NCBI GenBank assembly: GCA_023247445.1
Contig: JAHFGL010000003.1
Coordinates: 78,128 to 142,127, forward strand
DNA from: Candidatus Omnitrophota bacterium
GTDB taxonomy: Bacteria > Omnitrophota > Gorgyraeia > Zapsychrales > Zapsychraceae
Direction: 5' to 3'
DNA length: 64,000 bases
Translations under genes and position numbers: made by a program
Notes under the pieces: generated by a model
Seen by the model: the letters and a program-made list of their open reading frames with translations, nothing else
Database searches by the model: none
What the model was told of the DNA's origin: nothing
Shown: one piece after another, positions 3,611 to 59,574 of the stretch
Numbering within the stretch: the stretch's first letter is position 1
Layout: every line of letters starts with the position of its first letter

Positions 3611-4141
3611 ATGAGTAAGTTTCGAACATTAATGATTTCTATTTTTGCCGTCGTTTTATTAGCCAGCGTGTCTTATGCGGCTGATTTGAAGATAGGGTAT
3701 GTTGATTTAAGTCGAGTTTTTGATGAGTACCATAAGACTAAGGATTACGACAAAGTTTTAGAAGCAAAGAGTAAGGATTTTGAAAAAGAACGTAATGATA
3801 AGATTGAAAAAGTCAAAGAACAACAAGCCAAATTAGGTTTGTTAGCGGAAGATAAAAAAGCTCCTGTTGAACAAGAAATTGAAAAGTTGAAGACGGATTT
3901 ATTAGAATTTGACCGTCAGAAAAAAACAGACCTAACCAAAGAACGTAATGAGAAAATTCGTGAAATTCTTTTAGAGATCGAAAAAATTGTTAGCGGTTAT
4001 GCTGAAAAAGAAGGGTATACGCTCATTTTAAATGATCGTGTTTTGATTTATGGAGCTCAGACGCTTGATTTAACAGAAAAAGTGATGAAGCTCTTAAATG
4101 AAAATAAACCGGCCGACGACAAAAAAGCTGACAAGAAGTAA
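3611..4141 (+). CDS. skp: Periplasmic chaperone Skp/OmpH.
   Basis: 176 aa with a signal peptide and a coiled-coil K/E-rich body. It lies between bamA and lpxD as in most diderms. Confidence 0.75.
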   Translation: MSKFRTLMISIFAVVLLASVSYAADLKIGYVDLSRVFDEYHKTKDYDKVLEAKSKDFEKERNDKIEKVKEQQAKLGLLAEDKKAPVEQEIEKLKTDLLEFDRQKKTDLTKERNEKIREILLEIEKIVSGYAEKEGYTLILNDRVLIYGAQTLDLTEKVMKLLNENKPADDKKADKK

Positions 4142-4153
4142 TTTAGGTGTTGA

Positions 4154-5194
4154 ATGCGAAAAACCTTAGCCGAAATAGCAAAAGTCGTTAAAGGCGAGGT
4201 TGTCGGTGACAAAGCTATAGTCATCACTGGGCTAAGTGGTCTTGAGGAAGCTCAAGAAGGTGATTTAACATTTGTTATTAGTTCTAAATATTTTTCTTTA
4301 GCCCAGAAGACAAAAGCTTCTGCAATTTTAGCTCCTCGTAGCCTAAAAATTCCTGGCAAATCTATTATCTACACAGATAATCCTTCCTTTGCTTTTGGTG
4401 AAGTTGCCTCGATGATAACGGATGATGAAACTCATCGTATTAAGGGAATCCATTCCTCGGCTCTTATATCCAAAAATGTATCTCTTGGAAAAAATGTAGC
4501 CATTGGTCCATATGTCGTGATCGAAGAAGATACAGAGATCGGTGACAACACGATCATCTGTGCAGGGAGTTTTATTGGGCATCATGCAAAAATAGGCAAG
4601 GATTGTTTTATTTTTCCTCAGGTTATGATTCGCGATGGTTCGATGATTGGTGATCGCGTCATGATCCATAGTGGAACAGTGATTGGCTCTGATGGGTTTG
4701 GTTTTGAACAAGTTAAAGGTGTTCACAAGAAAATTCCGCAAATTGGTATTGTTGTTATTGAAGATGATGTTGAGATTGGTTCCAATGTCTGTATCGATCG
4801 AGCGCGGTTTAATAAAACAGTAATCGGCAAAGGAACAAAAATTGATAATTTAGTTCAGATTGGACACAATGTTGTTATTGGGGAAAATTGTATTATTATT
4901 TCGCAAGTTGGAATATCGGGAAGTACTATAATAGAAAAAAATTGTATTTTTGCCGGGCAAGTCGGAGTTGTCGGTCATATTAAAGTTGGCGAAGGGACTG
5001 TCGTTATGTCGCAATCTTGTCTGATGAAATCGACAACCCCCAACAGTAAGGTTTTTGGTTATCCTGCTAAGCCACACTTGCAAGCAAAGAAAATTAATGC
5101 TCATTTACAGCGGCTTCCCATTTATGTTAATAAAATTCAAGAGCTAGAAAAGAAAATTGAAATGCTAGAGTCGAAGTTTAAGGATAGGAAATAA
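4154..5194 (+). CDS. lpxD: UDP-3-O-acylglucosamine N-acyltransferase LpxD.
   Basis: 346 aa with left-handed beta-helix hexapeptide repeats (IGxxxxIG...). Its position is between skp and lpxC/fabZ. Confidence 0.85.
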
Positions 5195-7407: not shown

Positions 7408-8217
7408 ATGTCAAGTCAACTTCTCGGACTTATCGCCGGAAACGGCAAATTTCCCATTCTTTTCGCCCAGAAAGCAAAATCAAAAAATTACAAGATAGTT
7501 GCCGCAGGCATTAAAGGTGATACGTCATTTCTTTTGAAATTTTTTGTTGATGAATTGGTTTGGTTTAGAGTCGGGGAACTCAAAAAACTTTTTTCTTTTT
7601 TTAAAGAAAGAGGTGTTGGCAAGGTGATTATGGCTGGGCAAGTAAATCCTGATAATTTGTTTGAACAAAATGTTAAATTTGATGAAGAGTTTCAAAAATT
7701 ATTTGATGCTATCAAAGATCGTAAGGCTGATACAATTTTTAGCGCTATTGCCGACAAATTAAAACAACAAAACATGGAGCTCGTTGATTCAACCTTTTTA
7801 CTTGAGGATTATTTGGCGCCAAAGGGAACGTTAACCAAGCGCGGTCCAACGCTTAAGGAGTTAGAAGATATTGAATTTGGTCGAACAATCGCCAAAGCCA
7901 TGGGCGGCCTTGATGTTGGCCAGACCGTTGTAATTAAAGAGAAAGCGATTGTGGCGATCGAAGCGATGGAGGGAACGGATCGCACCATTGACCGCGGGGG
8001 GCGCATCGCCCGAACAGGCGCGGTTGTCGTTAAAATGAGTAAACCAAATCAAGACTTGCGTTTTGATATCCCTGTCATTGGCCCACGTACAATTGAAACC
8101 ATGATCAAGTCAAAAGCCCAGTGCCTTGCCATTGAAGCTGGAAAAACTTTAATTATTGAACGTCCAAAATGCCTTAAGCTTGCCAATCGATTTGGCATTT
8201 GCATTGTTTCTTCTTAG
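7408..8217 (+). CDS. lpxI: UDP-2,3-diacylglucosamine hydrolase LpxI (DUF1009 family).
   Basis: 269 aa. LGLIAGNGKFP at the N-terminus and MGGLDVGQTVV...IEAMEGTD motifs are typical of LpxI. It lies directly after lpxA. Confidence 0.6.
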   Translation: MSSQLLGLIAGNGKFPILFAQKAKSKNYKIVAAGIKGDTSFLLKFFVDELVWFRVGELKKLFSFFKERGVGKVIMAGQVNPDNLFEQNVKFDEEFQKLFDAIKDRKADTIFSAIADKLKQQNMELVDSTFLLEDYLAPKGTLTKRGPTLKELEDIEFGRTIAKAMGGLDVGQTVVIKEKAIVAIEAMEGTDRTIDRGGRIARTGAVVVKMSKPNQDLRFDIPVIGPRTIETMIKSKAQCLAIEAGKTLIIERPKCLKLANRFGICIVSS

Positions 8218-8262
8218 TCCTAAAAAAATCATTTCTCGCCGATAAAACGAGCCCTCTTTTGA

Positions 8263-21003: not shown

Positions 21004-22125
21004 ATGAAACGCCTCCTTGAAGCAAAAATTAAACTAGATTTAGACCAAAAAATTGTTCTTTTAAGTGGTCCCCGCCAAGTAGGAAAGACAACCCTTGCCA
21101 AGGCACTTTATCCAGACACAGCAGAATATTTTAATATGGACAATGAGGCGCATCGTCTTCTTATCAAAAAGCAGGCTTGGCGCCGTGATTGTGATTTGGT
21201 CATTTTTGATGAATTGCATAAAATCAAAAAATGGAAAAGTTGGATTAAGGGGATCTATGATACGGAAGGCGTTAGACCACGTCTTCTGGTCACTGGGTCT
21301 TCACGGCTAGATACCTTTCGCAAAGGTGGCGATTCGCTTGCCGGGCGATTTTATCATTTTCGGCTTCATCCTTTTTCTGTAGCCGAGATCAAAGGCAATG
21401 ATTCTTCAGATAATATCCTAGAAAAGATTATGAGGGTCGGTGGGTTTCCTGAACCATTTCTAAAAGATAGCGAAGAAGCCGCCAAGCGTTGGCGCCGTTC
21501 GCATATCGATCGTATTTTACATGAAGATATTTTTGATGTTTCATCGCTTCGGGATATCCGCGGCCTCGAAACGTTGGTGGAATTATTACGTAATTGCGTC
21601 GGGAGTACCGTATCCTTTGAATCATTGTCCCGAGACCTGCAAGTTTCTCCACACACGGTTAAGCAATGGGTTAGTATTCTAGAAAGCCTTTATATTCTTT
21701 TTGTCGTAACACCCTATTCACGTAATATCGCCAGAAGTCTTTTAAAACAACCAAAAATTTATTTCTACGATACAGGTTTTGTCAAAGAAGATGAGGGGGC
21801 AAGATTTGAGAATACGGTAGCGTGTTCTCTTTTGAAACGACTCCATTTTTTAGAAGATACTAAAGGTGAGAAATGCGCACTCCATTATTTACGCGACAAA
21901 GAAAAAAAAGAAGTGGATTTTTTAACGGTGCGTGACGGCCAGCCGGAATGGTTAATTGAAGCTAAAATTTCCGATCAAAATACGTCTACGCTTAATCATT
22001 TTGCTAGCTTTTTACCTAAGAAAACGGAGCCAATCCTTCTTGTGAAAAATCTTAATCGGGAACTTTTTTTAAATGGGGTCAAGGTCAAAAGAGCTGCTCA
22101 ATGGTTACAAAATCTGGAAGCCTAA
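21004..22125 (+). CDS. AAA+ superfamily ATPase with a C-terminal DUF4143-type domain (COG1373-like).
   Basis: 373 aa with Walker A GPRQVGKTT and Walker B VIFDELH. This ATPase + DUF4143 architecture is widespread. Confidence 0.65.
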   Translation: MKRLLEAKIKLDLDQKIVLLSGPRQVGKTTLAKALYPDTAEYFNMDNEAHRLLIKKQAWRRDCDLVIFDELHKIKKWKSWIKGIYDTEGVRPRLLVTGSSRLDTFRKGGDSLAGRFYHFRLHPFSVAEIKGNDSSDNILEKIMRVGGFPEPFLKDSEEAAKRWRRSHIDRILHEDIFDVSSLRDIRGLETLVELLRNCVGSTVSFESLSRDLQVSPHTVKQWVSILESLYILFVVTPYSRNIARSLLKQPKIYFYDTGFVKEDEGARFENTVACSLLKRLHFLEDTKGEKCALHYLRDKEKKEVDFLTVRDGQPEWLIEAKISDQNTSTLNHFASFLPKKTEPILLVKNLNRELFLNGVKVKRAAQWLQNLEA

Positions 22126-22702: not shown

Positions 22703-23149
22703 ATGAACTATATTATCTACATAGTAAAAAGTGTTCTCCTAGCAATTTTATGTGCAGTCTTTACATTCGTGGCCTTTGCCTGTCTTTGGTACGTGGCGTC
22801 AAACCCAAATTCCTTTTTTATATTTGGTATTGTTTTATTAGTCACCTTGGCGGCAATAATGTATACAATTGATTCCTTGCGCAGATCAGTCATAAAAGAT
22901 ACAGGGAGATCAAAGGCTTTTAATTATGCCTGCATCGGTATATTAATTGGAATTGTTATTGCCATTATTAAATGGAAATGGGACCTTTCTAAATACTTTC
23001 AGGCAAGGGGAACGCAAGAAACTTACGGTGCTGATATTGTTGAACTATTAATGTCGATTGTCTTTTTTTCTGTCTTAGGATTTATTGGCGGCTTATTTAT
23101 TGGATTAATACGAGTAAAAAGATATAAAAATATTCCGAAATTGCCATGA
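22703..23149 (+). CDS. Hypothetical membrane protein (4 TM).
   Basis: 148 aa, hydrophobic. It overlaps the start of the next gene by 4 bp, which suggests an operon. Confidence 0.4.
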   Translation: MNYIIYIVKSVLLAILCAVFTFVAFACLWYVASNPNSFFIFGIVLLVTLAAIMYTIDSLRRSVIKDTGRSKAFNYACIGILIGIVIAIIKWKWDLSKYFQARGTQETYGADIVELLMSIVFFSVLGFIGGLFIGLIRVKRYKNIPKLP

Positions 23150-25014
23150 AGTTAAAAGCGTGTTTAAAAAGGTTTCTTGCCAGCGATTGGGTTGTTGTTG
23201 CCGGTTTAACGTTTATTTTCTTTTTAACCCACGGGTATCGATTTGCCTGGGATGACCATCCCATGGAAATTCCCCTTCTTAAAAGCCTCATCGACCACGA
23301 GCTATTTACCCGTGATTATTTCGTTACCAGCACCAAACAATATCTCTTAACCTATTTTTTTATTATCTTGTCGAAATTAATAACCATTAAGCAGATTGAG
23401 TTGGTGTATTTCATTTTATTTTGGGTGTCGCGCTATTTTATGTTTTTCTGGATGTATAAATTGTGGTTACTCATCTCAAAAAATAAATTAACAAGTTTCT
23501 GCTGCGTCTTAAGTTTTGAAGTGTTGGTGCGGTATCAGCTATTTCTTTATCTTACGTTTTCGGAATCAGAATGGACCTTTGCCTTTATTTTTGCCGGTTT
23601 TTACTATTTCTTTAAAGAAAGGTATCTTCTGGCGTCGATCATTTTGGGTGTTGCGGCAAATTTTCATGCCTTATTTGCGGCTTTCCCGATGATGTATGTA
23701 CTGGCTTATTTGATGTTCAAGGTAAAAGACTTAGGATGGAAGCCATTGGTCAATTCATTGTTGGCCTTTTTGATTTGCGCATCGCCAGTTTTAATTTGGT
23801 TTGTGAAAAAGATTCTTTTTCCACCGGCACTTGCTCCCGAGTTGCAATCAATGGATTGGATACAGCTTTATAAGGAACACTGCGAGTATATGTTTCGTTA
23901 TGGCACCGCTGCTCTTAGCCAAACTTTTCCTAACTCAGGGGCTTTTATTAAGAACGAGGCTGTTCATTTCGATATTTTTGTTATTTCTTTATTGTTTTTT
24001 AATCTTTGTCATAACCCCACATTCCGTAAAGAAACAAAAACGATGACAATCTTTTTTGTTGGAATGACGTTAATGATTTTTGATGTGCTGTGTGCTTATT
24101 TTTTCCCCAACGAACTTAGTATGACGATACAGTTCCGTCGGCATGAACCGTATCTTATAATTTTCTTGATTGGCTATACGACACTAGCGCTACGAACGAT
24201 TTCTTTGAAAGAAACCGTTTGGACATCCGCATTTCTGGGGATTATGTATTATCATCTGGGCAACAAGGATTTATTAAGCGCATCGATGTTATTGGCGGCG
24301 ACGTGTTTATTATTTGTGACACGAAGTAAATCCTATAACAAGATTCCTCAACTAGTAATATCTATTTTGGGTGTTATTGGTGTTTTTGTTTCTTTAAAGC
24401 TTTATGTGTATCAATTGCACCTGATGGGGATCAATCCTTTTCGAGAGATGTTTTTTAAGATTGTTTTAACAGTTTTCGGTGTTTCTTCATTAAGCACGTT
24501 AATTTTTCGTAACCCGAAATATCATGGCCAAATAAAGGCGTTATTTATTATTGTTCCGTTAAGCATATTCGTCTTCGGCTATACGCAGCGACATATTCAA
24601 GAAGTAAAGAAACCTAAATCATCCATTGATATTGTGCGGGACGATTTTAAAGAAATGGCCCTATATGCCAAGGATCACACGCCGAAGAGTGCGCTATTTT
24701 TGATTCCCTATGATTTGTCTTATGACAATTTTAGAGTTTTCTCTGAGCGCAATGTTCTCTATAACGATCAAGACATCGCTATTTTTCCCTATGACAAGAA
24801 TTTTATTTTAGAACGAAAGAAGAAGTTATCTTATATCGGTGATTTTAAAATTAGAGCAGAGCGCCCCGTCAATGACGCGGTTAAGAATGCCATTTTGGTT
24901 TATCATGTCGACTATATTGTTTTCCCATCTTACAACATGCCGCCAAGTTCAGCGATATTAGAACGCATTCATACAACATCGCTTTTGGGGCTATATAAAG
25001 TCAATTATCTGTGA
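23146..25014 (+). CDS. Large polytopic membrane protein, possibly a GT-C-type glycosyl- or lipid-modifying enzyme.
   Basis: 622 aa with >10 predicted TM helices and a C-terminal soluble region. No diagnostic motif is recognisable. Confidence 0.4.
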   Translation: MKLKACLKRFLASDWVVVAGLTFIFFLTHGYRFAWDDHPMEIPLLKSLIDHELFTRDYFVTSTKQYLLTYFFIILSKLITIKQIELVYFILFWVSRYFMFFWMYKLWLLISKNKLTSFCCVLSFEVLVRYQLFLYLTFSESEWTFAFIFAGFYYFFKERYLLASIILGVAANFHALFAAFPMMYVLAYLMFKVKDLGWKPLVNSLLAFLICASPVLIWFVKKILFPPALAPELQSMDWIQLYKEHCEYMFRYGTAALSQTFPNSGAFIKNEAVHFDIFVISLLFFNLCHNPTFRKETKTMTIFFVGMTLMIFDVLCAYFFPNELSMTIQFRRHEPYLIIFLIGYTTLALRTISLKETVWTSAFLGIMYYHLGNKDLLSASMLLAATCLLFVTRSKSYNKIPQLVISILGVIGVFVSLKLYVYQLHLMGINPFREMFFKIVLTVFGVSSLSTLIFRNPKYHGQIKALFIIVPLSIFVFGYTQRHIQEVKKPKSSIDIVRDDFKEMALYAKDHTPKSALFLIPYDLSYDNFRVFSERNVLYNDQDIAIFPYDKNFILERKKKLSYIGDFKIRAERPVNDAVKNAILVYHVDYIVFPSYNMPPSSAILERIHTTSLLGLYKVNYL

Positions 25015-25069
25015 GCAAAATTCGTGGTGTTCACGATAGAACCATTGTATTATTGGATAAAAATAAATA
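24886..25069. repeat. 184-bp direct repeat, copy 1 (3' end of the 622-aa gene plus ~55 bp downstream).
   Basis: Near-identical to 28026-28209, with about 6 mismatches. Confidence 0.9.
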
Positions 25070-25188
25070 ACATCAAGGCGATATAATTTTCGATATGTGT
25101 TTTGGAATTATGTGGCCGTATTAGGAACGAGAGGATTAAGCCTTCCCACTATCAAACGTAAAGTTCATGAGATTCTTAAGAAGGAAAT

Positions 25189-25512
25189 ATGAGAGTAATG
25201 AAGAAGACCTTGCTTGTTAATATAATGATTCTTCTTAGCTATGTGACTTTGTTAGGCCTTGGCTATGGATTTTATACTAGGGGTTTTCCTCCTCGTGGCG
25301 AAAATTATGCTTCATTAGGCACGGCCCTTTTAACTGTGCTTCTTATTTTTGTACATTTATTTTGCAATTTAGTTTTGTCGTTTATCTTTTTTTATCTTAA
25401 GGATAAAGAGAAGGGAAAGGCTTATCTATTGAGCATTGCGGTGATTGCCATCATAGGTGTCCCAGCTTGTTTTGGTGGAACTTTTTTGACAGATTGGATT
25501 CAACGATTTTGA
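25189..25512 (+). CDS. Small membrane protein, paralog A.
   Basis: 107 aa with 3 TM helices. Paralogous to 25553-25846 (similar N-terminus KTLLVNIMILLSYVTLL and C-terminal CFGG/CFAG motif). Confidence 0.45.
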   Translation: MRVMKKTLLVNIMILLSYVTLLGLGYGFYTRGFPPRGENYASLGTALLTVLLIFVHLFCNLVLSFIFFYLKDKEKGKAYLLSIAVIAIIGVPACFGGTFLTDWIQRF

Positions 25513-25552: not shown

Positions 25553-25846
25553 ATGACCTTAACTAGAAAAATACTATGGGTGAATGTGATCATACTTTTT
25601 GCATACTTAACCTTGCTAAATATGGCCCTTAAAGCAGAAGGAAATAAGGCGGGACTTGGCTTTTTAATATTAGCAGCTTTTTCACTTGGATTGCATTTAG
25701 TGATTAACCTTATAATTGCAATTATAATGTTTTGTCGAGGGAAAGAAGATATCGGAAGAGCTTTTTTGTTCACTCTTCCTCTTATTTTAGTCATTGGTTT
25801 TCCCATGTGTTTTGCCGGTGTTGGGTTGCTTGATAATATACATTAA
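25553..25846 (+). CDS. Small membrane protein, paralog B.
   Basis: 97 aa. Tandem paralog of 25189-25512. Confidence 0.45.
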   Translation: MTLTRKILWVNVIILFAYLTLLNMALKAEGNKAGLGFLILAAFSLGLHLVINLIIAIIMFCRGKEDIGRAFLFTLPLILVIGFPMCFAGVGLLDNIH

Positions 25847-25851: not shown

Positions 25852-26595
25852 ATGTTTCCAATAAATATAACATTAGGGAAAGTAATTATTAATTCCCATT
25901 TGCTTTTTGAAATATTGGCTTATACGTTAGGTTTTCGTTATTTTTTGTACCTACGAAAAAAAGCGATTGATAGAGTATCAGAATCTAATCGCATCTGGAT
26001 TCTAATAGGTGCTGGATTTGGTGCGGTGATTGGGTCAAGATTATTGGGTTTCTTTAGCACACTAATCTCGGGTTTAAATGTATCCCAAGCTGTTTTATTG
26101 TTTTTTAGCAGTAAATCTATTGTCGGCGGACTTTTGGGAGGGTTGATTGGCGTTGAAATCACCAAGAAATTTTTAAATATAAAATTTTCAACAGGGGATC
26201 TTTTGACATATCCCATTATATTAGCCATGATCATTGGGCGTGTGGGGTGTTTCTTGCAAGGTGTTCATGATGGGACTCATGGTACGGCCTCAACTTTGCC
26301 ATGGGCTATCGATATGGGAGATGGAATCCTTCGGCATCCCACGTCATTATATGAAGTTATTTTTCTAGCTGCTCTATGGGTTGTTTTACGGAAAATTGAC
26401 CACCGCTTAATTGAAGGCGCAAGATTTAAATTATTTATAACAGCTTATCTAGTATTTCGATTCTTTATTGAGTTTATTAAGCCAGTTTATATCTATCCAG
26501 TGGGGATATCCGCTATTCAGATTGTTTGTCTGGCTGGTCTGATCTATTATTGGAAAGTACTATTGTTTTCTCAAAGTTTGTTTAAACAAATCTAA
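25852..26595 (+). CDS. lgt: Prolipoprotein diacylglyceryl transferase (Lgt family).
   Basis: 247 aa. Lgt signature regions are present: GGLLGGLIGV, GRVGCFLQG (cf. GRLGNFINGE), RHPTSLYE (cf. HPSQLYE) and FRFFIEFIKP. Confidence 0.7.
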   Translation: MFPINITLGKVIINSHLLFEILAYTLGFRYFLYLRKKAIDRVSESNRIWILIGAGFGAVIGSRLLGFFSTLISGLNVSQAVLLFFSSKSIVGGLLGGLIGVEITKKFLNIKFSTGDLLTYPIILAMIIGRVGCFLQGVHDGTHGTASTLPWAIDMGDGILRHPTSLYEVIFLAALWVVLRKIDHRLIEGARFKLFITAYLVFRFFIEFIKPVYIYPVGISAIQIVCLAGLIYYWKVLLFSQSLFKQI

Positions 26596-26606
26596 AAAGT
26601 GAGACA

Positions 26607-28013
26607 TTGATGGCCGACCGCAATTATTTATTTTACGATTTTACCACAAGCATCTGTTCACAATGTTTACGCAAAGTAGAGGCCAAGGTTATTTTTCAAG
26701 ATGAGAAAGTTTATTTACTTAAAAATTGTTTGATTCATGGAAAAGAGAAAGTATTAATCGCGACTGACATTGAATATTATAAGATGACGCGTAATTATTT
26801 AAAGCCTCCAAGCATGCCGCTTAAGTTTAATACCACGACACAATTTGGTTGTCCTTATGATTGCGGTTTGTGCCCCGATCATGAGCAGCATTCTTGTTTA
26901 ACGGTCATTGAAATTACCGATCGATGCAATTTGACATGCCCAACCTGTTACGCTGAATCAAGCCCTACGCATGGACGGCATCGAACGGTCGAAGAGATTG
27001 AACAGATGTTTGATATTATTGTCGCTAATGAGGGCGAACCGGATGTTGTTCAGATTAGCGGGGGCGAACCGACACTGCATCCCGATTTTTTTAAGATTCT
27101 TGATATTGCCAAAACAAAACCATTCCGGCATTTGATGATTAACACTAATGGTATTCGTATCGCTAAGGATGAAACTTTTGTCCGGCAGTTAGCGTCTTAC
27201 ATGCCGGGATTTGAAGTCTACTTACAGTTTGATTCCTTTGAGAAAGAGACACTTCAAAAGCTAAGAGGTGAAGATTTAAGAGATGTTCGGGAGCGTGCTC
27301 TTAATAATTTGAATAAATATAATCTTTCAACCACTTTAGTTGTTACCTTGCAAAAAGGATTAAATGATCATGAGATCGGCAAGATTATTCAGTTTGCCTT
27401 AAAGCAAAAATGTGTTCGCGGAGTAACATTGCAACCCACCCAAACGGCTGGCCGACTTGACAATTTCAATCCCGCAACTGATCGTCTTACCTTAACGGAA
27501 GTCCGTCAGGCCATCATTGATCAGAGCAATTTATTTACACCTGATGATTTGCTGCCCGTTCCTTGCAACTCTGATTGCTTGGCAATGGGATATGCGTTAA
27601 AAATTGCTGGACAGGTTATGCCACTTACGCGATTTATTAATCCCAAAGACTTATTAAATGATTCTAAAAATACGATTGTTTATGAGAAAGATCCCGACAT
27701 TCATCGCAAAATTATTAAAGTGTTTGATACGGGAAGGAGTGAGAATGAAATTCCGAAAAATTTGCAGTCACTCTTGTGTTGCTTGCCAAAGATTGTGGCC
27801 CCAAACCTTAATTATGATAATGTCTTTCGCGTGATCATTATGCAATTTTTAGATGCGTACAATTTTGACGTCCGCGCGGTCAAGAAATCTTGTGTCCACA
27901 TTGTCCATAAAGACGGCCGGATTATTCCTTTTGATACGATGAACTTATTTTATCGCGATGATAAAGAAGAATATTTAAAGCGTTTAAAGAATGAAACAGT
28001 TTTAACCAAATGA
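26607..28013 (+). CDS. Radical SAM enzyme with an N-terminal Cys-rich Zn-ribbon-like segment and two CX3CX2C motifs.
   Basis: 468 aa with CPYDCGLC and CNLTCPTCY, a glycine-rich SAM-binding stretch QISGGEPTL, and further C-terminal Cys residues. The architecture recalls the MJ0619 / Tes-like radical SAM family, but that assignment is unverified. Confidence 0.6.
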   Translation: MMADRNYLFYDFTTSICSQCLRKVEAKVIFQDEKVYLLKNCLIHGKEKVLIATDIEYYKMTRNYLKPPSMPLKFNTTTQFGCPYDCGLCPDHEQHSCLTVIEITDRCNLTCPTCYAESSPTHGRHRTVEEIEQMFDIIVANEGEPDVVQISGGEPTLHPDFFKILDIAKTKPFRHLMINTNGIRIAKDETFVRQLASYMPGFEVYLQFDSFEKETLQKLRGEDLRDVRERALNNLNKYNLSTTLVVTLQKGLNDHEIGKIIQFALKQKCVRGVTLQPTQTAGRLDNFNPATDRLTLTEVRQAIIDQSNLFTPDDLLPVPCNSDCLAMGYALKIAGQVMPLTRFINPKDLLNDSKNTIVYEKDPDIHRKIIKVFDTGRSENEIPKNLQSLLCCLPKIVAPNLNYDNVFRVIIMQFLDAYNFDVRAVKKSCVHIVHKDGRIIPFDTMNLFYRDDKEEYLKRLKNETVLTK

Positions 28014-28025: not shown

Positions 28026-28209
28026 AATGCCATTTTGGTTTATCATGTCGACTATATTGTTTTCCCATCTTACAACATGCCGCCAAGTTCAGCGATATTA
28101 GAACGCATTCATACAACATCGCTTTTGGGGCTATATAAAGTCAATTATCTGTAAGAAAAATCCGTGGCGTTCACGACAGAACCATTGTATTATTGGATAA
28201 AAATAAATA
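28026..28209. repeat. 184-bp direct repeat, copy 2 (noncoding relic of the 622-aa gene 3' end).
   Basis: Matches 24886-25069. It lies immediately after the radical SAM stop codon. Confidence 0.9.
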
Positions 28210-28337
28210 GCAATAATGGCATGGGTTGCGGTCTTTGGGAGTTGCTGGTAGGTAGGGATGATAATGGAGAGAATAGCAAAAGCTTTAGTAGCACAGGGAC
28301 TTATAAAATAGTATACTTTTTGCAAGGAGGATATTTT

Positions 28338-28523
28338 ATGACGGCAAAGCAAGAGGTTCGATCATTGCTTCAGAAGTTACCTAATAATTGTACGCTTGAG
28401 GATATTCAATATCATCTCTATGTTATTGAGAAAATTAATAGAGGCCTTGCGCGGATAAAAAAAGAAGGTGGTATTCCGCACAAAGAAGTTAAAAAACGGT
28501 TGGCTAAATGGATCGTAAAGTAA
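28338..28523 (+). CDS. Type II antitoxin (putative addiction-module component of the RelE/ParE system).
   Basis: 61 aa (MTAKQEVRSLLQKLPNNCTLEDIQYHLYV...) preceded by AAGGAGG. It overlaps the toxin start by 16 bp. The longer six-frame ORF from 28164 begins inside the repeat and is not credible. Confidence 0.6.
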   Translation: MTAKQEVRSLLQKLPNNCTLEDIQYHLYVIEKINRGLARIKKEGGIPHKEVKKRLAKWIVK

Positions 28524-28813
28524 AGTGGTCGCCTGAGGCCTTGGAAGATGTTGAGTCGATTGCGCAGTACATTGCCCGCGATTCGCAATTTTACGCCCGA
28601 TCTACGGTTTCTAAAATCCTCGATTTTTCAGACAGTATCGCCAAATTTCCACAAGTGGGTCGCATCGTCCAAGAATTTAATGATAAAACAATCAGAGAAC
28701 GGTTAGTTTATAGTTATCGTTTAGTGTACAAAATTGAACGTTTTCGCATCCTTGTTATTGCTGTTATCCACGATAAAAGGTTATTTAACTCTATATCAAA
28801 GCGATTTGAATAG
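28508..28813 (+). CDS. Type II toxin, RelE/ParE family.
   Basis: 101 aa (WSPEALEDVESIAQYIARDS...RLVYKIE...ILVIAVIH), the typical ParE/RelE fold signature. Confidence 0.7.
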   Translation: MDRKVKWSPEALEDVESIAQYIARDSQFYARSTVSKILDFSDSIAKFPQVGRIVQEFNDKTIRERLVYSYRLVYKIERFRILVIAVIHDKRLFNSISKRFE

Positions 28814-28941: not shown

Positions 28942-29424
28942 ATGGATCAAAAAGTTCTTAAATTCAGAAATCCAGATTTAAATTTTATTTCCTATGGAGG
29001 GATAGTGTGTTTTCTAGCTTCATTTCTATCGTTCCCATTTATTATCTTTGATCCATCAAAAAAAGATCTGCACTTAAATTTTACAGATTTTGTTGGCTTA
29101 GCATTTTTTGTCGGCCTGTTCTTCTTTGTATTAACTGTTGTGCCAGCTATCATTTTTCTGAATACATATTGGAAAGAGTTTATTTTTGATTCCAAGAAGA
29201 AAGTCATTACCATTGTGAAAAGAATATTCTTTTTTCGCGTTGGCAAAATCGAAGAAATCCCTTTTAGTTCTGCCTCGTTGGCATTGGAGCATAGATCCCT
29301 TGATGGGGGCCGAGTGTGGTATTTGATTTTAAATACGGGTTATAATCGATTTGATCTTTGCTTTAGTCTTTTTAAAGGCAGGATAGACAAACATAAGACA
29401 CGTTTAGAACAGATTTTAAAATAA
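28942..29424 (+). CDS. Hypothetical membrane protein.
   Basis: 160 aa with 2 TM helices and no recognisable motif. Confidence 0.35.
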   Translation: MDQKVLKFRNPDLNFISYGGIVCFLASFLSFPFIIFDPSKKDLHLNFTDFVGLAFFVGLFFFVLTVVPAIIFLNTYWKEFIFDSKKKVITIVKRIFFFRVGKIEEIPFSSASLALEHRSLDGGRVWYLILNTGYNRFDLCFSLFKGRIDKHKTRLEQILK

Positions 29425-51573: not shown

Positions 51574-53361
51574 TTAATTTGTTTTTTTAGGTCGGTAAAT
51601 GTGTGTACTTTGACCGAAGAAACTTTCGGCGGTTTCCATCAGAGTTTCACTTAAGGTGGGGTGAGGATGGATGGTCATTTTAAGGTCAGTGACAACCGCG
51701 CCCATTTCGATAGCCAGAACACCTTCAGCAATAAGTTCTCCAGCTCCAGGACCAACGATTGAGACACCTAAAATGCGTTCTGTTGTGGGATCAATAATTA
51801 ATTTTGTAAGCCCATCGGTGCGATCAAGGGTTAATGATCGTCCGGAGGCCGCCCATGGAAATTTGACAACCTCAACAATTTTGCCTTGAGCTTTGGCTTC
51901 AGTTTCTGTTAATCCGCACCAGGCAATTTCTGGGTCAGTAAAAACAACCGCAGGAATTGCTTTTGGTTCAAAAGCCGCTTTATGACCGGCAATGCATTCC
52001 ACGGCGGTGATTCCTTCGTGGGAGGCTTTATGGGCCAGCATCGGTTGACCAGTTACGTCACCGATGGCATAGATTGACGCATCCGCGGTTTGGCGCTGAA
52101 GATTTACTTCAATAAATCCGCGGTCACTAACTTTAACTTTTGTTTTCTCCAGACCGAGTCCACTAGTATTTGGTTTTCTGCCGATTGCGACTAAAACTTT
52201 TTCATATTCTTTTGATGTTGTCTGCCCAGTTTTATCTTCAAATGTTACTTTAATTCCCGAAGAGGTTTCTTCCATCTTAAGGACTTTTGTTTCCACCATA
52301 ATTGTGCTAAGGATTGTCCTTAAACGTTTCTCAAGGATACTTGCGACATCGCGATCAGCGCCCGTCATCAGTTGTGGAAGCATCTCAACAACATCTAATT
52401 GTGTTCCTAGTTCTGCATAGACCGTTCCTAGTTCTAGTCCAATATACCCACCGCCGACGAGTAACATCGTTTTTGGAATGCTTTTCATTTCTAAGGCTGA
52501 GGTTGAATCCCATATCCGAAGAGATTTTGGGGCGATAGGAAGTTGAATGGGACTCGACCCAGTTGCAATAATAGCGCGATCAAAAGTTAATGATTCAGAA
52601 CTTCCGTCGTTCTTCGCAACATTTAAAGTGTTTGAGTTAACAAATGTAGCGCGGCCTTGGATATATTTTACTTTTCGTTGTTTACTTAATTGTCCTAAGC
52701 CACCGGTTAATTTTTTAACAACATCATCTTTCCATCCACGCAATTTATTGATATCGATTTTTGGTTTATCAAATTCAATGCCGAAATTTTTGGCTTCTTT
52801 GGATTCAGATAAAACTTTGGCAGCGTGAAGTAGGGCTTTAGAAGGAATGCATCCGCGATATAAACAAACGCCGCCTGGATTAACATCTAAATCAATGAGA
52901 GTTACGTTTAGTCCTAAGTCGGCTGCTAAGAATGCCGCGGTGTAGCCACCGGGTCCACCGCCGATGACGACGAGATTAATATCTTTTGTTGATGATAAGG
53001 GAAGAGGAGTTAGGTGTTGGGGTTCGGTTTTACTTTTGTCATCCTGAGCGGCAGCGAAGGATCTCTTGGGAGATCCTTCAGTCGCTTTCGCTCCTTCAGG
53101 ATGACGGGTAATGCCTGATGTTGATGATGTCTCTTCAACTTTAAGCACAACCTGACCGATCGTAACTTCTTGGCCAGCTTTGATTAGAATTTCTTTAACG
53201 ACACCATCGCAGGTCGAAGGGACCGGCAAGGAAGCCTTGTCTGTTTCAAGCTCGAGAAGATCTTGACCTTTTTTAATCGTGTCACCGACTTTAACAAAGA
53301 TGTTAACGACAGTTCCAGATTTTATATTTTCCCCGACCTGAGGAATTTTGAATTCAATCAT
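51574..53361 (-). CDS. lpdA: Dihydrolipoyl dehydrogenase (E3) with an N-terminal lipoyl domain.
   Basis: 595 aa: lipoyl domain (ELETDKA), linker, FAD-binding GGGPGGY, and redox-active disulfide CLYRGCIPSK. Confidence 0.9.
   Translation of the reverse strand: MIEFKIPQVGENIKSGTVVNIFVKVGDTIKKGQDLLELETDKASLPVPSTCDGVVKEILIKAGQEVTIGQVVLKVEETSSTSGITRHPEGAKATEGSPKRSFAAAQDDKSKTEPQHLTPLPLSSTKDINLVVIGGGPGGYTAAFLAADLGLNVTLIDLDVNPGGVCLYRGCIPSKALLHAAKVLSESKEAKNFGIEFDKPKIDINKLRGWKDDVVKKLTGGLGQLSKQRKVKYIQGRATFVNSNTLNVAKNDGSSESLTFDRAIIATGSSPIQLPIAPKSLRIWDSTSALEMKSIPKTMLLVGGGYIGLELGTVYAELGTQLDVVEMLPQLMTGADRDVASILEKRLRTILSTIMVETKVLKMEETSSGIKVTFEDKTGQTTSKEYEKVLVAIGRKPNTSGLGLEKTKVKVSDRGFIEVNLQRQTADASIYAIGDVTGQPMLAHKASHEGITAVECIAGHKAAFEPKAIPAVVFTDPEIAWCGLTETEAKAQGKIVEVVKFPWAASGRSLTLDRTDGLTKLIIDPTTERILGVSIVGPGAGELIAEGVLAIEMGAVVTDLKMTIHPHPTLSETLMETAESFFGQSTHIYRPKKTN
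53038..53105. repeat. 68-bp palindromic element (GTCATCCTGAG...CTTCAGGATGAC) lying in-frame inside the lpd lipoyl-domain linker.
   Basis: GTCATCCTGAGCGGCAGCGAAGGATCTCTTGGGAGATCCTTCAGTCGCTTTCGCTCCTTCAGGATGAC. It is translated on the minus strand as ...RHPEGAKATEGSPKRSFAAAQDDK... Confidence 0.85.
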
Positions 53362-53363
53362 TT

Positions 53364-54641
53364 TTAAAGTCCTGTTAAATCCGGCTTTTCAATGGCTTCA
53401 GCGATCCAGCGTAGGAATCGCGCACCATCGGCCCCATCAATCAAACGATGATCATAGGAAAGAGAGAGAGGAAGTTTAAATCGCGGGACAAAAGCACCCT
53501 TTTCATAAACCGGTTCCCATGCTCCACGAGAAATTCCTAAAATTGAAACCTCTGGCCAGTTGACAATCGGAGTAAAATAAGTTCCGCCAATGCCACCTAA
53601 ATTTGTTAAGGTAATTGATCCGCCTTGTAATTCATCTAATGTTGTCTTTTTGGTACGCGCGCGTTCCGCCATTTCATTTAGTTCATCAGCCAGTTGAATA
53701 ATACTTTTCTTGTCGATATCTTTTATGACTGGAACCAGAAGTCCGCGATCCGTATCAACAGCGACACCAATGTTAAAATATTTTTTCTCAATGATTTCGT
53801 TCGTGCTCATATCAATCGAGGCATTAAATTGTGGAAATGTTTTTAAAGCCGAGGCCATTACTTTTAAAAGAAATGGGGTGATCGTTAATTTGCGTTTATC
53901 TGTCGATTTTTCTTTGCGTATTTTCTCAAGTTCGGTAATGTCCGCTTTATCGAATTGTGTGACGTGGGGAATTGTGGTCCAGCAATATGTCATATGTTCC
54001 GCTGTTTTCTTGCGGACATTGTTCATCGGTTTTCGTTCAACCGATCCCCATTTTGAGAAATCAGGCAAAGATCGTGTAGGCACACTTACGCCGCCACTAG
54101 CGCGTGAAGTGTTGAGCGCTTTTGAATAAGCTTTAACATCATCAAGAGAAATGCGTCCACCAGGACCAGTTCCCAAGACTTGGCCAATTTCGATACCAAT
54201 CTCTCGTGCGAAACGACGAACAGAGGGAGCCGCTGCAACGTCACGTTGTGGTGACATTGATCGCATGGGCATAACTGGTTGCGCCATTTGGACTGGTTTG
54301 GCAACAGTTTTGTCATCCTGAGCGGCAGCGAAGGATCTCTTAGGAGATCCTTCAGTCGCTTTCGCTCCTTCAGGATGACGAGCCGGGGTTGTTGTCGTGG
54401 CCGATGTTGTCTCATCAATTTTCATCACCAGCTGACCAATTTTTACTTCATCGTTTTCTTTGATCAAAATTTCTTTGATTGTCCCATCGACAGGAGAAGG
54501 GACTTCAAGCGCCGCTTTATCTGTTTCAAGCTCAAGGAGAGTTTGATTTTTCTTGATGACATCGCCAACTTTGACGGCAATTTTTATGACGGTGCCGGAT
54601 TTTATATTTTCTCCGACTTCGGGGAGTTTGAATTCGAACAT
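53364..54641 (-). CDS. aceF: Dihydrolipoamide acyltransferase (E2) of a 2-oxo acid (pyruvate) dehydrogenase complex.
   Basis: 425 aa: lipoyl domain, linker, E3-binding domain (PSVRRFAREIGIEI) and catalytic domain (DHRLIDG). Confidence 0.9.
   Translation of the reverse strand: MFEFKLPEVGENIKSGTVIKIAVKVGDVIKKNQTLLELETDKAALEVPSPVDGTIKEILIKENDEVKIGQLVMKIDETTSATTTTPARHPEGAKATEGSPKRSFAAAQDDKTVAKPVQMAQPVMPMRSMSPQRDVAAAPSVRRFAREIGIEIGQVLGTGPGGRISLDDVKAYSKALNTSRASGGVSVPTRSLPDFSKWGSVERKPMNNVRKKTAEHMTYCWTTIPHVTQFDKADITELEKIRKEKSTDKRKLTITPFLLKVMASALKTFPQFNASIDMSTNEIIEKKYFNIGVAVDTDRGLLVPVIKDIDKKSIIQLADELNEMAERARTKKTTLDELQGGSITLTNLGGIGGTYFTPIVNWPEVSILGISRGAWEPVYEKGAFVPRFKLPLSLSYDHRLIDGADGARFLRWIAEAIEKPDLTGL
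54312..54379. repeat. 68-bp palindromic element (same family) lying in-frame inside the E2 lipoyl-domain linker.
   Basis: Differs from the 53038 copy by one base (TTAG vs TTGG loop). It encodes the same RHPEGAKATEGSPKRSFAAAQDDK peptide. Confidence 0.85.
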
Positions 54642-54660
54642 GGTTAACCTTTACAGTAGT

Positions 54661-54738
54661 GTCATTCCCGCAAAAGCGGGAATCTAGGACGAAAGTTTAT
54701 TTTTTATGGATGCCCGATTAAAGCATTCGGGCATGACA
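54661..54738. repeat. Double-hairpin palindromic element between aceE and aceF with GTCAT...ATGAC termini.
   Basis: GTCATTCCCGCAAAAGCGGGAATC ... ATGCCCGATTAAAGCATTCGGGCATGAC. Two stems of 8 bp each. The termini resemble the GTCATCCTGAG family. Confidence 0.7.
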
Positions 54739-54751
54739 GAAATCAAATACT

Positions 54752-57436
54752 TTAAGAAATCATCGGATTAAGTTTATTCGGATTAATCGACAATTCTTTG
54801 GCGGCTTTATCAAGAACATCTGCCTTAATTTTGTTTTCGCGGTAAAGTTTGCTTAACGTGGCAAAGACAATATGTCGCGCGTCGATTTCAAAGAAATCGC
54901 GTAGCGCCTTGCGGCTTTCGCTACGACCAAAACCATCGGTTCCCAGAGAAACCATCGGCCCTGGTACCCATTTGCTAATTCCATCCGACATCGCCTTCAT
55001 ATTGTCAGAGACAAAGACAAAAACGTCTTTCTCATTTTTTAAAATTTGAGTCACGTAAGGAACTTTAGGCGTTTCTTTTGGATTTAAGAAATTCCAACGC
55101 TCGATGTGAAGTGCTTCCCGGCGAAGTTCGTTGTAGCTGGTAACACTCCAGATATCGGCGGCGATATTATATTTTTCTTCTAGAATCTTCTGCGCCTCTA
55201 GCGCTTGATTCATAATTGACCCACTGCCAAAAATTTGCGCTTGAAGTGTAGCACCCTTTTTGTCTGAGGTCTTAAATTTGTACATTCCTTTTAAGATGCC
55301 TTCTTTAACACCTTCAGGCATCGCAGGCATCGGATAATTTTCGTTGCCGACACTTAAGTAGTAGAAAACATTTTCTTGTTTTTCATACATACGATAAATG
55401 CCGTCACGAATAATGATGGCTAGTTCATAAGCAAAGGCTGGATCATAGGTGACGATGTTGGGAACGCTTGAAAGTAAAAGGTGGCTGTGGCCATCTTGAT
55501 GTTGTAATCCTTCACCGTTAAGTGTTGTTCGTCCGGCGGTAGCGCCAACTAAAAATCCTCGGCAACGTGAATCCGCCGCGGCCCAGATTAAATCACCGAT
55601 ACGTTGTGGTCCAAACATCGAATAATAAATATAAAATGGAATTGTGTTGATCCCTTGTGTTGAATAAGCCGTTCCGGCGGCAATAAAAGAGGAGATGGCG
55701 CCGGCTTCATTAATACCTTCTTCTAGGATTTGACCATCTTTCGCTTCTTTGTAATAAAGAAGTGAGTCCGCATCAACTGGTTCATAAAGCTGCCCGACAT
55801 GGGAATAGATTCCGCATTGACGGAAAAGCGATTCCATCCCAAAGGTTCGCGCTTCATCAGGAATAATAGGAACAATTAATTGACCAATTGTTTTGTCTTT
55901 TAAAAGTTTGGTTAAGATACGAACATAAACCATCGTCGTTGAAACTTCACGGCCTTCGGTTCCTTTATAAAATTCTTCAAATAATTCTTCAGAAGGCGTT
56001 TGAAGAGGAACACTGTTGGCCTGACGCGAGGGAACGTAGCCGCCGAGTGCTTTGCGTCGTTCATGAAGATAAATCATTTCTTCAGAATCCGCTGCTGGTT
56101 TATAAAATGGTGTGTTCGCGGTATCTTTATCTGAAATAGGAATGTTAAATCGTGTACGGAATTGTTTTAATTCATCTTCGTTGAGCTTCTTTTGTTGGTG
56201 GCTAATGTTTTTTCCTTCGCCACTTTCGCCAAGTCCATAGCCTTTGATTGTTTTGGCTAAAATAACCGTTGGTGCGCCTTTAAAATCCATGGCCGCTTTA
56301 TACGCCGCATAAACTTTTTGAGGATCATGGCCACCGCGGTTTAAACATTCCAACTGTTCGTCGCTTAAATGTTTTACCATCTCTAACAGGCGTGGATCTT
56401 TGCCAAAAAAATGGTCACGGATATAAGCGCCAGACTCAACTGAATATTTTTGATATTCGCCATCGATAACTTCACCCATACGTTTGGCAAGAAGGCCTTC
56501 GGTATCTTTTTCGAGCAAAGCATCCCAGCCGCTGCCCCAGATAACTTTAATGACATTCCACTGCGCGCCGCGAAAGAGGGCTTCTAATTCTTGAATAATT
56601 TTGGCGTTGCCGCGAACCGGTCCATCAAGTCGCTGGAGGTTGCAGTTAATAACAAAGATTAAATTGTCGAGTTTTTCGCGAGAGGCGACAGTAATAGCGC
56701 CTAAAGATTCTGGTTCATCAGATTCACCATCGCCCATGTAGCACCAAATTTTGGCATCATCACGAGGTTTAAGGCCACGGTCTTCCAAATAACGCATAAA
56801 ACGGGCTTGATAAATACTACAAATTGGACCCAGTCCCATTGAAACCGTTGGAAATTGCCAGAAATTTGGCATAAGCCAAGGATGTGGATAAGAGGAAAGG
56901 CCGCCACCAGGCTGCAATTCTCGACGGAAATTTTCTAGATTGGTTTCAGTTAATCGGCCTTCTAAGAAAGCGCGGGAATAAACACCAGGAGAGGCATGAC
57001 CTTGAAAATAAATGAAATCACCGCAAAAATTATCCGTTCGCGCACGATAAAAATGATTAAAGCCAACTTCCCAAAGCGTTGCCGCTGAGGCGTAGGTTGA
57101 AATATGTCCACCGATTCCGCTTTCCGCATGATTGCCGCGAACGACCATCGCCATCGCATTCCAGCGAATAATACTTTTAATGCGGCGTTCAATCTCGCGG
57201 TTTCCTGGGTAAGCAGGTTCTTTGCTTTTGGCAATTGAGTTTATATAGGGAGTATTAACAGTAAAGGGAAGGGTAACACCGGCTTCTTGAGCGCGGATTT
57301 GCAGCTGAGCGAGGATTTTTTGCGCTTGTTCGAGCGAGCCGTGTTTTAAAACGTAATCGAGGGAACTGAGCCACTCTTGTATTTCAATATCTTCGACTTC
57401 ATTGGATTGATTTTTTACGACACCATCGGAACTCAT
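54752..57436 (-). CDS. aceE: Pyruvate dehydrogenase E1 component (homodimeric AceE type).
   Basis: 894 aa. The length and ThDP-binding regions are typical of the large single-chain E1. It is upstream of E2 and E3. Confidence 0.9.
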   Translation of the reverse strand: MSSDGVVKNQSNEVEDIEIQEWLSSLDYVLKHGSLEQAQKILAQLQIRAQEAGVTLPFTVNTPYINSIAKSKEPAYPGNREIERRIKSIIRWNAMAMVVRGNHAESGIGGHISTYASAATLWEVGFNHFYRARTDNFCGDFIYFQGHASPGVYSRAFLEGRLTETNLENFRRELQPGGGLSSYPHPWLMPNFWQFPTVSMGLGPICSIYQARFMRYLEDRGLKPRDDAKIWCYMGDGESDEPESLGAITVASREKLDNLIFVINCNLQRLDGPVRGNAKIIQELEALFRGAQWNVIKVIWGSGWDALLEKDTEGLLAKRMGEVIDGEYQKYSVESGAYIRDHFFGKDPRLLEMVKHLSDEQLECLNRGGHDPQKVYAAYKAAMDFKGAPTVILAKTIKGYGLGESGEGKNISHQQKKLNEDELKQFRTRFNIPISDKDTANTPFYKPAADSEEMIYLHERRKALGGYVPSRQANSVPLQTPSEELFEEFYKGTEGREVSTTMVYVRILTKLLKDKTIGQLIVPIIPDEARTFGMESLFRQCGIYSHVGQLYEPVDADSLLYYKEAKDGQILEEGINEAGAISSFIAAGTAYSTQGINTIPFYIYYSMFGPQRIGDLIWAAADSRCRGFLVGATAGRTTLNGEGLQHQDGHSHLLLSSVPNIVTYDPAFAYELAIIIRDGIYRMYEKQENVFYYLSVGNENYPMPAMPEGVKEGILKGMYKFKTSDKKGATLQAQIFGSGSIMNQALEAQKILEEKYNIAADIWSVTSYNELRREALHIERWNFLNPKETPKVPYVTQILKNEKDVFVFVSDNMKAMSDGISKWVPGPMVSLGTDGFGRSESRKALRDFFEIDARHIVFATLSKLYRENKIKADVLDKAAKELSINPNKLNPMIS

Positions 57437-57474
57437 AGGCTGCTTTCCTTTAACTTTTAGTCTTTATATGTTTC

Positions 57475-57589: not shown

Positions 57590-57667
57590 AAGTTTGAGCA
57601 TTTTAGTATGGATAAACTTAATGCGCAAGGGGTTTTTCCCTATTTAAAGTTGACTTATCTGGAATTT

Positions 57668-59540: not shown

Positions 59541-59574
59541 ATATTGAATGAATGTAAAGAAATGTGTTTTGTTT

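Follow-up and report, generated by a model that had tools for sequence, protein, structure and literature searches.

The archaeal radical S-adenosylmethionine (SAM) enzyme Tes, or GDGT-MAS (MJ0619), couples lipid tails with the help of four metal sites: a rubredoxin-like Fe with three Cys and one His as ligands, an N-terminal [4Fe-4S] cluster ([4Fe-4S]N), likewise held by three Cys and a His, the radical SAM (RS) cluster, and a C-terminal [4Fe-4S] cluster ([4Fe-4S]C; three Cys and a Met) that traps the lipid radical; its substrate has a glycerol headgroup (archaetidylglycerol), and hydrogen is abstracted from the terminal carbon (PMC13459092). The diacylglyceryl transferase Lgt takes N-terminal signal peptides as acceptors. 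In the Escherichia coli enzyme, R143 and R239 bind and activate phosphatidylglycerol (PG), H103GGL is the proposed binding region for the lipobox peptide, and the active-site cavity opens to the periplasmic leaflet (PMC4728403); Y26, H103, R143, N146, G154, and R239 are absolutely required (PMC13251419). Here we describe a locus in which a Tes-like and an Lgt-like enzyme are encoded together with small membrane proteins ending shortly after a Cys. It lies in a 64,000-nt stretch of DNA (below, the window) from a Candidatus Omnitrophota bacterium (contig JAHFGL010000003.1, positions 78,128 to 142,127), and has counterparts in many Bacteroidota. The three components form a self-contained, horizontally mobile cassette, in which known kinds of enzyme are assembled into an undescribed system.

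Several described systems share single components with it. Bacterial homologues of Tes have been candidates for the synthesis of glycerol dialkyl glycerol tetraethers of the branched type (brGDGTs) since 2022, mainly in Acidobacteria, Chloroflexota, and Planctomycetota; they are unverified, none having been experimentally confirmed as a maker of membrane-spanning lipids, and no Lgt partner is mentioned for them (PMC8941075, PMC13159169). For the membrane-spanning lipid synthase Mss of Thermotoga and Thermoanaerobacter, a radical SAM enzyme is proposed for tail-to-tail fatty-acid coupling; as described, Mss is set apart from the cassette by its remote relationship to Tes and its restriction to anaerobes (PMC13159169), and no Lgt or small-protein partner has been reported for it. 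On the Lgt side, two PF01790 genes occur together in about 10% of genomes (PMC13251419). One second homologue, MSMEG_5408 of Mycobacterium smegmatis, is a non-essential paralogue beside the canonical Lgt, with unexplained or “presumed low” activity (PMC13251419; bioRxiv 10.1101/2025.01.07.631728); Y26H and N146C, two of the substitutions discussed below, are also reported there, and it is by these described substitutions that the two are likened. No relevant paper came up in a literature search for an Lgt and a radical SAM enzyme occurring as a pair, and the cassette is absent from Pfam and NCBIfam models and from the literature searched, the paper defining the TrsS family (see below) lying outside that search.

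A scan of one genome per species gave 337 relatives; the locus counts used here rest on the best 80, that is, on the closest relatives, which are mostly Flavobacteriaceae, Sphingobacteriaceae, Chitinophagaceae, and Saprospiraceae, together with metagenome-assembled genomes of Sericytochromatia/Cyanobacteriota. In 80 of 83 loci, drawn from several phyla, the Lgt-like gene comes upstream, and in 63 it abuts or overlaps the radical SAM gene; apart from the cassette genes, no neighbor is conserved in the flanks. An exhaustive search also recovered LGT, Zn-ribbon, and radical SAM domains fused into a single chain in two independent lineages, one 48% identical (P0377, with three distinct sequences on three contigs) and one 36% identical (P0498). 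Their Lgt domains score 243 and 129 bits on the clade profile, vs. 34 for E. coli Lgt, and so belong to the same clade. In a sister locus (L090, 41% identity) the Lgt-like gene is downstream of the radical SAM gene, the order being changed while the linkage is kept. Given the adjacency in nearly all loci and the natural fusions, the two genes are functionally linked; their co-occurrence across genomes had been named as a check in a preliminary description of this DNA. The cassette is very probably a real functional unit with a role other than housekeeping. One locus (L030) looks locally rearranged, with an intact Lgt-like gene 5.5 kb upstream; two short fragments (7956–8250 and 3746–4483) that match the Lgt-like profile, some 1.8–2 kb upstream of the radical SAM gene, look like what is left of pseudogenes.

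The radical SAM open reading frame (ORF) matches the Pfam models Zn_ribbon_HMPTM and Radical_SAM. Its best PDB sequence match is GDGT-MAS/MJ0619 (7TOL; E 7e-64, residues 13–456), with which it has 28% identity and a four-domain fold in common over the full length. An AlphaFold2 (AF2) model (predicted local distance difference test, pLDDT, 72; predicted template modeling score 0.80) matches 7TOL and 7TOM with template modeling (TM) scores of 0.77–0.79 (E 1e-33); the next-best radical SAM fold reaches at most 0.42, and SkfB and SuiB only 0.35–0.36. Like Tes, which acts at the membrane, the protein is soluble: it has no transmembrane segment (maximum hydropathy 0.94). The family is large, with more than 8000 database clusters at E < 1e-20 and 696 representatives at 1e-30, and strongly conserved: 187 of 468 columns are invariant, and the window protein is 66–72% identical to its Bacteroidota counterparts.

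Three of the four Tes metal sites are kept, with ligands invariant among 83 sequences: the rubredoxin-like site (C17, C20, C41, and H44), the N-terminal cluster (C82, C86, C89, and H92), and the CX3CX2C of the RS cluster (C107, C111, and C114). The C-terminal set (C269, C320, C391, C392, and C429) is equally invariant in the subfamily and is distinct from that of Tes; MJ0619 has just one C-terminal Cys, aligned to C429, in common with the window protein. The model has pLDDT below 50 at residues 343–396, in the C-terminal cluster region that includes C391 and C392. All of the Cys motifs listed in the preliminary description are present (the CxxC C17/C20, CPYDCGLC at 82–89, CNLTCPTC at 107–114, CNSDC at 320–324, and CC at 391–392), except that C324 of CNSDC is not a conserved feature, with Ala there in 82 of 83 homologues.

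The same description had likened the protein to Tes/MJ0619-type enzymes. This is borne out by the structural matches, and also by the curated NCBIfam models, of which TrsS and Tes score best; but neither cut-off is reached. TrsS (NF045646) gives 337.6 bits vs. a cut-off of 490, in an end-to-end alignment (protein 13–454 to profile 3–438 of 441), and Tes (NF045702) 282 bits vs. 450, its best stretch covering residues 13–324 only. The Flavobacterium orthologue is also below the Tes cut-off (307 bits), and ten sister representatives tested all fall below both. TrsS, reportedly described by Haft and Tolstoy in 2025, is a (seleno)protein family of similar length, in contrast to the window protein, which has Cys and no selenocysteine; we know of no function for it. 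The radical SAM protein is thus a full-length structural homologue of Tes that keeps three of its four metal sites, and is not a member of the Tes family by curated score, nor apparently by C-terminal cluster ligands. A different architecture within the superfamily turned up in the representative search: a 688-aa protein (P0497) with a Tes-like radical SAM enzyme fused C-terminally to a Cys-rich DUF5714 domain (183 bits).

The Lgt homologue matches Pfam LGT (PF01790; 76 bits, E 2.8e-21) and has seven transmembrane helices and a shortened head domain. A single-sequence PDB search gave no match at E ≤ 1, but E. coli Lgt (5AZB) is matched by the family profile at E 1.2e-7, and among PDB folds the AF2 model (pLDDT 86) has just one significant match, again 5AZB (probability 1.0, TM 0.57, 17% identity). 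In common with the housekeeping enzyme (E. coli, 5AZB/5AZC; TIGR00544) are the LGT domain, the seven-helix fold, the G-R-x-G signature, and a predicted N-out/C-in topology; the cassette paralogue differs in being about 45 residues shorter, with reduced head and arm regions. All lgt equivalog cut-offs (TIGR00544 and NF000778) are missed: the window protein scores 37.9 bits vs. a cut-off of 334, and the Flavobacterium orthologue 53.2 vs. 118.9 on TIGR00544. By residue mapping, G142, R143, G145, G154, E202, Y235, R239, and E243 are kept, while Y26H, H103V, and N146C are substituted; of the six residues required in E. coli, three (R143, G154, and R239) are therefore retained and three (Y26, H103, and N146) replaced. 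N146C is invariant in the clade and common to the fusion and sister lineages. What is retained (R143, R239, Y235, and E243) serves PG binding and diacylglycerol transfer, and what is altered is the acceptor side, near the HGGL motif proposed to bind the lipobox. The family has 47 invariant positions, many of them polar (H16, E20, E102, K105, D116, C133, D157, R161, H162, E168, Y199, R203, and K210). The housekeeping Lgt of Bacteroides thetaiotaomicron has other changes (G142I, Y235I, and R246K) and keeps H103 and N146. Since the equivalog cut-offs are missed and the Y26H/H103V/N146C pattern is present, the gene is not a housekeeping-type lgt, and its product appears, from its residues, to be a specialized paralogue. 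No canonical lgt was found in the window or in 1.6 Mb of flanks around the loci of relatives.

The third component consists of small ORFs (46–113 aa, 1–3 per locus) directly 3′ of the radical SAM gene, often with an ATGA stop overlap. A profile for them has matches in 83 of 84 loci, without exception on the same strand, and hardly any others among 6715 ORFs in 1.6 Mb of flanks; the sole matches away from a radical SAM gene are two extra tandem copies in one locus (L015, 16173–16574), 4.8 kb downstream of the cassette. The consensus is Y-[LV]-[IL]-[IV]-[GS]-[LF]-G-[IV]-C-G, with the Cys conserved in 116 of 117 unique proteins, 4–13 residues from the C-terminus. There are 2–3 transmembrane helices, and a Lys/Arg-rich loop precedes the last of these, which ends in the Cys; the N-terminal half is variable, and the tail past the Cys is hydrophobic and poorly conserved beyond a Gly at +1; there is almost no “mature” part. 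Net charge is +3.2 ahead of the last helix vs. +0.1 past the Cys. This asymmetry suggests that the last helix is N-in/C-out, with the Cys at the outer face, in the geometry of a lipoprotein signal peptide; the Cys is thus predicted to face the periplasm. A canonical lipobox is found in only 6 of the 117, because position −1 is I, V, T, or L.

The small ORFs are under purifying selection (ratio of non-synonymous to synonymous polymorphism, pN/pS, about 0.3), and their combination of motif and hydrophobic helix occurs in just 1 of 3873 unrelated small ORFs taken as background. They match no Pfam or NCBIfam family. There are 391 database clusters; among the 120 listed, all are of 59–104 aa with no Pfam domain, and they are unnamed or “hypothetical,” save for a few spurious automatic labels. 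The proteins form a new family of conserved mini-proteins, so far annotated only as hypothetical. In the window, two copies lie upstream of the Lgt-like gene, unlike the usual downstream place, and resemble those of Sericytochromatia. Copy 1, with three predicted transmembrane helices, ends in ...IIGVPAC-FGGTFLTDWIQRF, with its Cys 13 residues from the C-terminus, and is found by a Bacteroidota-only profile at E 2.2e-6 among 372 ORFs; copy 2 ends in ...VIGFPMC-FAGVGLLDNIH, has a good Shine-Dalgarno sequence (TAAGGAG), and is 36% identical to copy 1 with the Cys aligned. The Bacteroidota-only profile misses copy 2 and the Sericytochromatia copies, for which homology is based on reciprocal search, motif, and position.

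A copy number that varies, together with a C-terminal motif that is conserved, is what one typically sees in substrates, and the scarcity of canonical lipoboxes would account for a dedicated Lgt being needed. Of the two roles raised in the preliminary description, modification of membrane-lipid C-C bonds and an unusual lipoprotein modification, both appear more plausible in the light of these comparisons, and it is the small Cys-ending proteins that most favor the second. Taken together, the cassette suggests an undescribed lipid-protein modification pathway. As a mechanism, the Lgt paralogue would move diacylglyceryl from PG to the Cys of the small protein at the outer leaflet, the presumed acceptor being a non-canonical lipobox at the C-terminus of a mini-protein, in contrast to the N-terminal signal peptides of housekeeping Lgt; the lipidated product would not be cleaved by signal peptidase II. 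The Tes-like enzyme would sit at the cytoplasmic face of the Lgt paralogue, to whose cytoplasmic C-terminus it is fused in some lineages: a cytoplasmic C-terminus is the established topology of Lgt, the charge distribution along the protein follows the positive-inside pattern, and the fusions would therefore put the radical SAM domain in the cytoplasm. There, 5′-deoxyadenosyl radicals would abstract hydrogen from terminal acyl-chain carbons, and the resulting radical would be held on the C-terminal cluster before a tail-to-tail C-C bond is made, so that the small protein would carry, by a covalent link, a membrane-spanning or macrocyclic lipid. Lipidation and tail coupling might come in either order. 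Tes joins archaeol-type lipids at their phytanyl termini, giving GDGT or macrocyclic archaeol. The hosts here differ from those of Tes in being bacterial, with ester-linked fatty-acid lipids; the dominant fatty acid of Bacteroidota is iso-C15:0, and its iso-branched terminus is chemically like that of a phytanyl chain.

This chemistry, in which the Lgt paralogue S-lipidates the small protein and acyl-tail termini undergo Tes-type radical coupling, is put forward as the leading but tentative reading, possible and still somewhat doubtful. The fuller claim of a new post-translational modification, in which an uncleaved C-terminal non-canonical lipobox is S-diacylglycerylated and the acyl termini are then joined by a bacterial Tes-type enzyme, seems unlikely. 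A number of points weigh against the proposed chemistry, the first three given here being the main ones. With Y26, H103, and N146 replaced, all of them essential in E. coli, the transferase activity of the Lgt paralogue may be altered or lost. The ligands of the C-terminal Tes cluster (three Cys and a Met) are apparently replaced as well, and trapping of the radical may therefore proceed differently. Because the Cys would lie at the outer leaflet and the radical SAM enzyme in the cytoplasm, the access of the latter to the acyl tails is unexplained. Three exceptional loci, which are genuine, have radical SAM and small-protein genes with no Lgt-like gene within 10 kb, and many of the 80 loci come from related Flavobacteriaceae, so the counts do not represent independent events. 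Two more distant small ORFs, one after a fusion gene with a 4-bp overlap (L087, ending in ...LLLLGFGLCLTLAR) and one ahead of a radical SAM gene (L090, ending in ...LLAGVVCY), are missed by the family profile and match by motif and position only. Finally, we know of no report of macrocyclic or membrane-spanning lipids from Bacteroidota.

In the broader radical SAM family, the genes beside sister clades give a hint of sulfur, selenium, or arsenic chemistry. The fusion genes of both lineages are flanked, with 4–14 bp overlaps, by homologous proteins (L087, 2989–4131, and L088, 4686–6065; 39% identity, E 1e-65) that combine a rhodanese domain with a polytopic membrane domain, the latter bearing a C-x2-C...C motif. 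This protein was considered as a fourth core component and rejected, because neither the window nor any of the 83 close loci has it. In two sister loci (L090, 3001–5408; L089, 169–558 and 2671–3772) there are genes for an ArsP-type permease, a protein with Sulf_transp and ICMT/PEMT domains, and a DsbD_TM protein, as well as for two proteins with CC motifs, one a methyltransferase that has it N-terminally and the other a membrane protein.

The most likely alternative to the proposed pathway is that free membrane lipids are modified: the Lgt-like protein would be a PG-binding dock that hands PG to the Tes-like enzyme with no lipid transfer, the small protein an accessory or anchoring subunit, and the product a tail-coupled (iso-diabolic-acid-type, membrane-spanning) or macrocyclic phospholipid. 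We regard this as possible, if rather unlikely. The Tes fold and metal sites suit it, as do the loss of three residues essential for transfer in E. coli along with the retention of the PG-binding R143 and R239, the position of the Lgt domain ahead of the radical SAM domain in the fusions, which would fit an anchor or substrate delivery, and the proposal of bacterial Tes homologues as brGDGT enzymes (PMC8941075). The 47 invariant, often polar positions of the Lgt-like family, however, suggest an active site more than passive docking; archaeal Tes does without a partner of this kind, having neither an Lgt paralogue nor a small Cys protein; a conserved Cys, 1–3 tandem copies, and a variable N-terminal half would be unusual in a structural subunit; and the known producers of diabolic and iso-diabolic acids lack Tes homologues (PMC13159169). 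A more improbable alternative, though one with a chemical precedent in Tes, which itself passes through a C-S(cluster) intermediate (PMC13459092), would join the carbon radical to sulfur (or selenium), from the Cys of the small protein or delivered by a carrier, to give a thioether lipid-protein or a thiolated lipid. That the nearest named family, TrsS, is a selenoprotein family would fit this, and so would the rhodanese-membrane protein adjoining the fusions in both lineages, the Sulf_transp/ICMT, DsbD_TM, and ArsP genes of the sister loci, and the presence of a conserved Cys in all three components (C133 in the signature motif of the Lgt-like protein, C391/C392 of the radical SAM enzyme, and the Cys of the small protein). 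Such sulfur-handling genes are nevertheless absent from the window and all 83 close loci, the small-protein Cys is predicted to be periplasmic and thus away from the radical SAM enzyme, and the latter has no SPASM or twitch domain of the kind found in thioether synthases: SPASM/twitch maturase models give 33–62 bits, from the radical SAM core alone, vs. cut-offs of 170–850.

Multi-copy, short, precursor-like genes beside a radical SAM gene also recall ribosomally synthesized and post-translationally modified peptides, and the last helix of the small proteins, signal-peptide-like and followed by only 4–13 residues, could be read in this way: a lipidated tail starting with Cys (e.g., C-G-S-M-M-I) would be released as a lipopeptide, secreted or in the membrane, and tailored by the radical SAM enzyme. 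This seems very unlikely, as the flanks hold no conserved gene for a protease, a transporter, or immunity, the tail is hydrophobic and poorly conserved past the Gly at +1, and an I, V, or T at −1 is unfavorable for signal peptidase II (lipobox rule: PMC12462473). Mere coincidence, with a housekeeping lgt next to an unrelated cofactor enzyme, was the fallback of the preliminary description, and some databases do name the genes “prolipoprotein diacylglyceryl transferase” and “HMPT dimethyltransferase” (in the JGI annotation, “7,8-dihydro-6-hydroxymethylpterin dimethyltransferase”); the window, too, shows no second lgt. But the second of these names stems from MJ0619, since shown to be Tes/GDGT-MAS. 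To our knowledge, cassette-bearing bacteria do not make methanopterin. The adjacency in 80 of 83 loci, the fusions in two lineages, equivalog scores of 38–53 bits vs. cut-offs of 119–334, and the replacement of Y26, H103, and N146, in a pattern unlike that of the B. thetaiotaomicron enzyme, leave coincidence largely refuted and scarcely credible, and the fallback can be considered effectively rejected.

To return to the locus itself, the features of the cassette in the window are collected in Table 1. The two enzyme genes lie where they had been placed in the preliminary description, at 25852–26595 (+, 247 aa) and 26607–28013 (+, 468 aa); the latter length assumes an alternative TTG start at 26607, while databases use the ATG at 26610.

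Table 1. Cassette genes and enclosing direct repeat in the window.
Feature	Position	Strand	Length	Basis
Left copy of direct repeat	24886..25072	.	187 nt	Repeat search; sequence inspected
Small membrane protein 1	25189..25512	+	107 aa	ORF, profile match
Small membrane protein 2	25553..25846	+	97 aa	ORF, paralogue of protein 1
Divergent Lgt-family membrane enzyme	25852..26595	+	247 aa	Pfam LGT, fold match to 5AZB
Soluble Tes/GDGT-MAS-fold radical SAM enzyme	26610..28013	+	467 aa	Pfam, NCBIfam, PDB, AF2 model
Right copy of direct repeat	28026..28212	.	187 nt	Repeat search

The gene order in this region is a 622-aa membrane protein, the two small membrane proteins, the Lgt-like and radical SAM enzymes, and a ParE-type toxin/antitoxin pair. 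The repeat encloses exactly the four cassette genes. Its left copy is made up of the final ~129 nt of the 622-aa membrane-protein gene and 58 nt downstream; the right copy, an orphan duplicate of the same 3′ end, begins 13 nt past the radical SAM stop codon. The two differ by 6 mismatches in 187 nt (97% identical). This arrangement suggests that the four genes came in together, by insertion or recombination of the whole block. The GC content of the cassette (0.369) is near that of its flanks.

The 622-aa polytopic membrane protein, which has a C-terminal DUF6798 domain, was considered as a part of the system and rejected, since in other genomes it is not a conserved neighbor of the cassette and since it is outside the repeat-bounded unit; a 148-aa membrane protein whose gene overlaps its start (together, 22703–25014) is likewise neither conserved there nor inside the unit. 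The preliminary description had the radical SAM gene between the Lgt homologue and polytopic membrane proteins; what lies downstream is instead the ParE-type pair, two overlapping small genes (28164–28813; 119 aa and 101 aa, the second a ParE-family toxin by Pfam) just past the right repeat, which form a toxin-antitoxin module adjoining the apparently inserted block. Elsewhere in the flanks are an AAA_14/DUF4143 ATPase (21004–22125) and a 160-aa membrane protein (28942–29424) with a weak match to a Bf21-family immunity protein (31 bits vs. a cut-off of 350), neither with an evident link to the cassette.

An Rfam scan of the whole window found a tRNA (58581–58663, −), a full-length tmRNA (60238–60665, +, 169 bits), and a c-di-GMP-I riboswitch (62668–62754, +, 71.5 bits), and nothing beyond these. 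A scan for promoters and terminators was uninformative (26 and 3 sites, vs. 24.6 and 5.2 expected). GC skew is strongly positive (0.09–0.30) over positions 1–52000 and falls to about 0 over 52000–64000; there may be a replication-related or gene-orientation boundary near 52 kb. Long ORFs in the 20–35 kb part of the window are all on the + strand.

Branched GDGTs are widely used as palaeoclimate biomarkers, and the enzymes that make them are missing. The cassette places a large and very conserved clade of bacterial Tes-like proteins in a defined genetic setting and supplies candidate partners for it. It also gives a concrete, testable role to “second Lgt” paralogues of the N146C type, which lipoprotein researchers have noted and left unexplained. 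The cassette is present in Flavobacterium, Pedobacter, and Mucilaginibacter, which are cultivable and genetically tractable, so the question of function is directly testable. If the fuller claim of a new post-translational modification is correct, a bacterial Tes homologue would for the first time have a demonstrated function, and the cassette could be a route to iso-diabolic-acid or brGDGT-like skeletons in abundant aerobic Bacteroidota.

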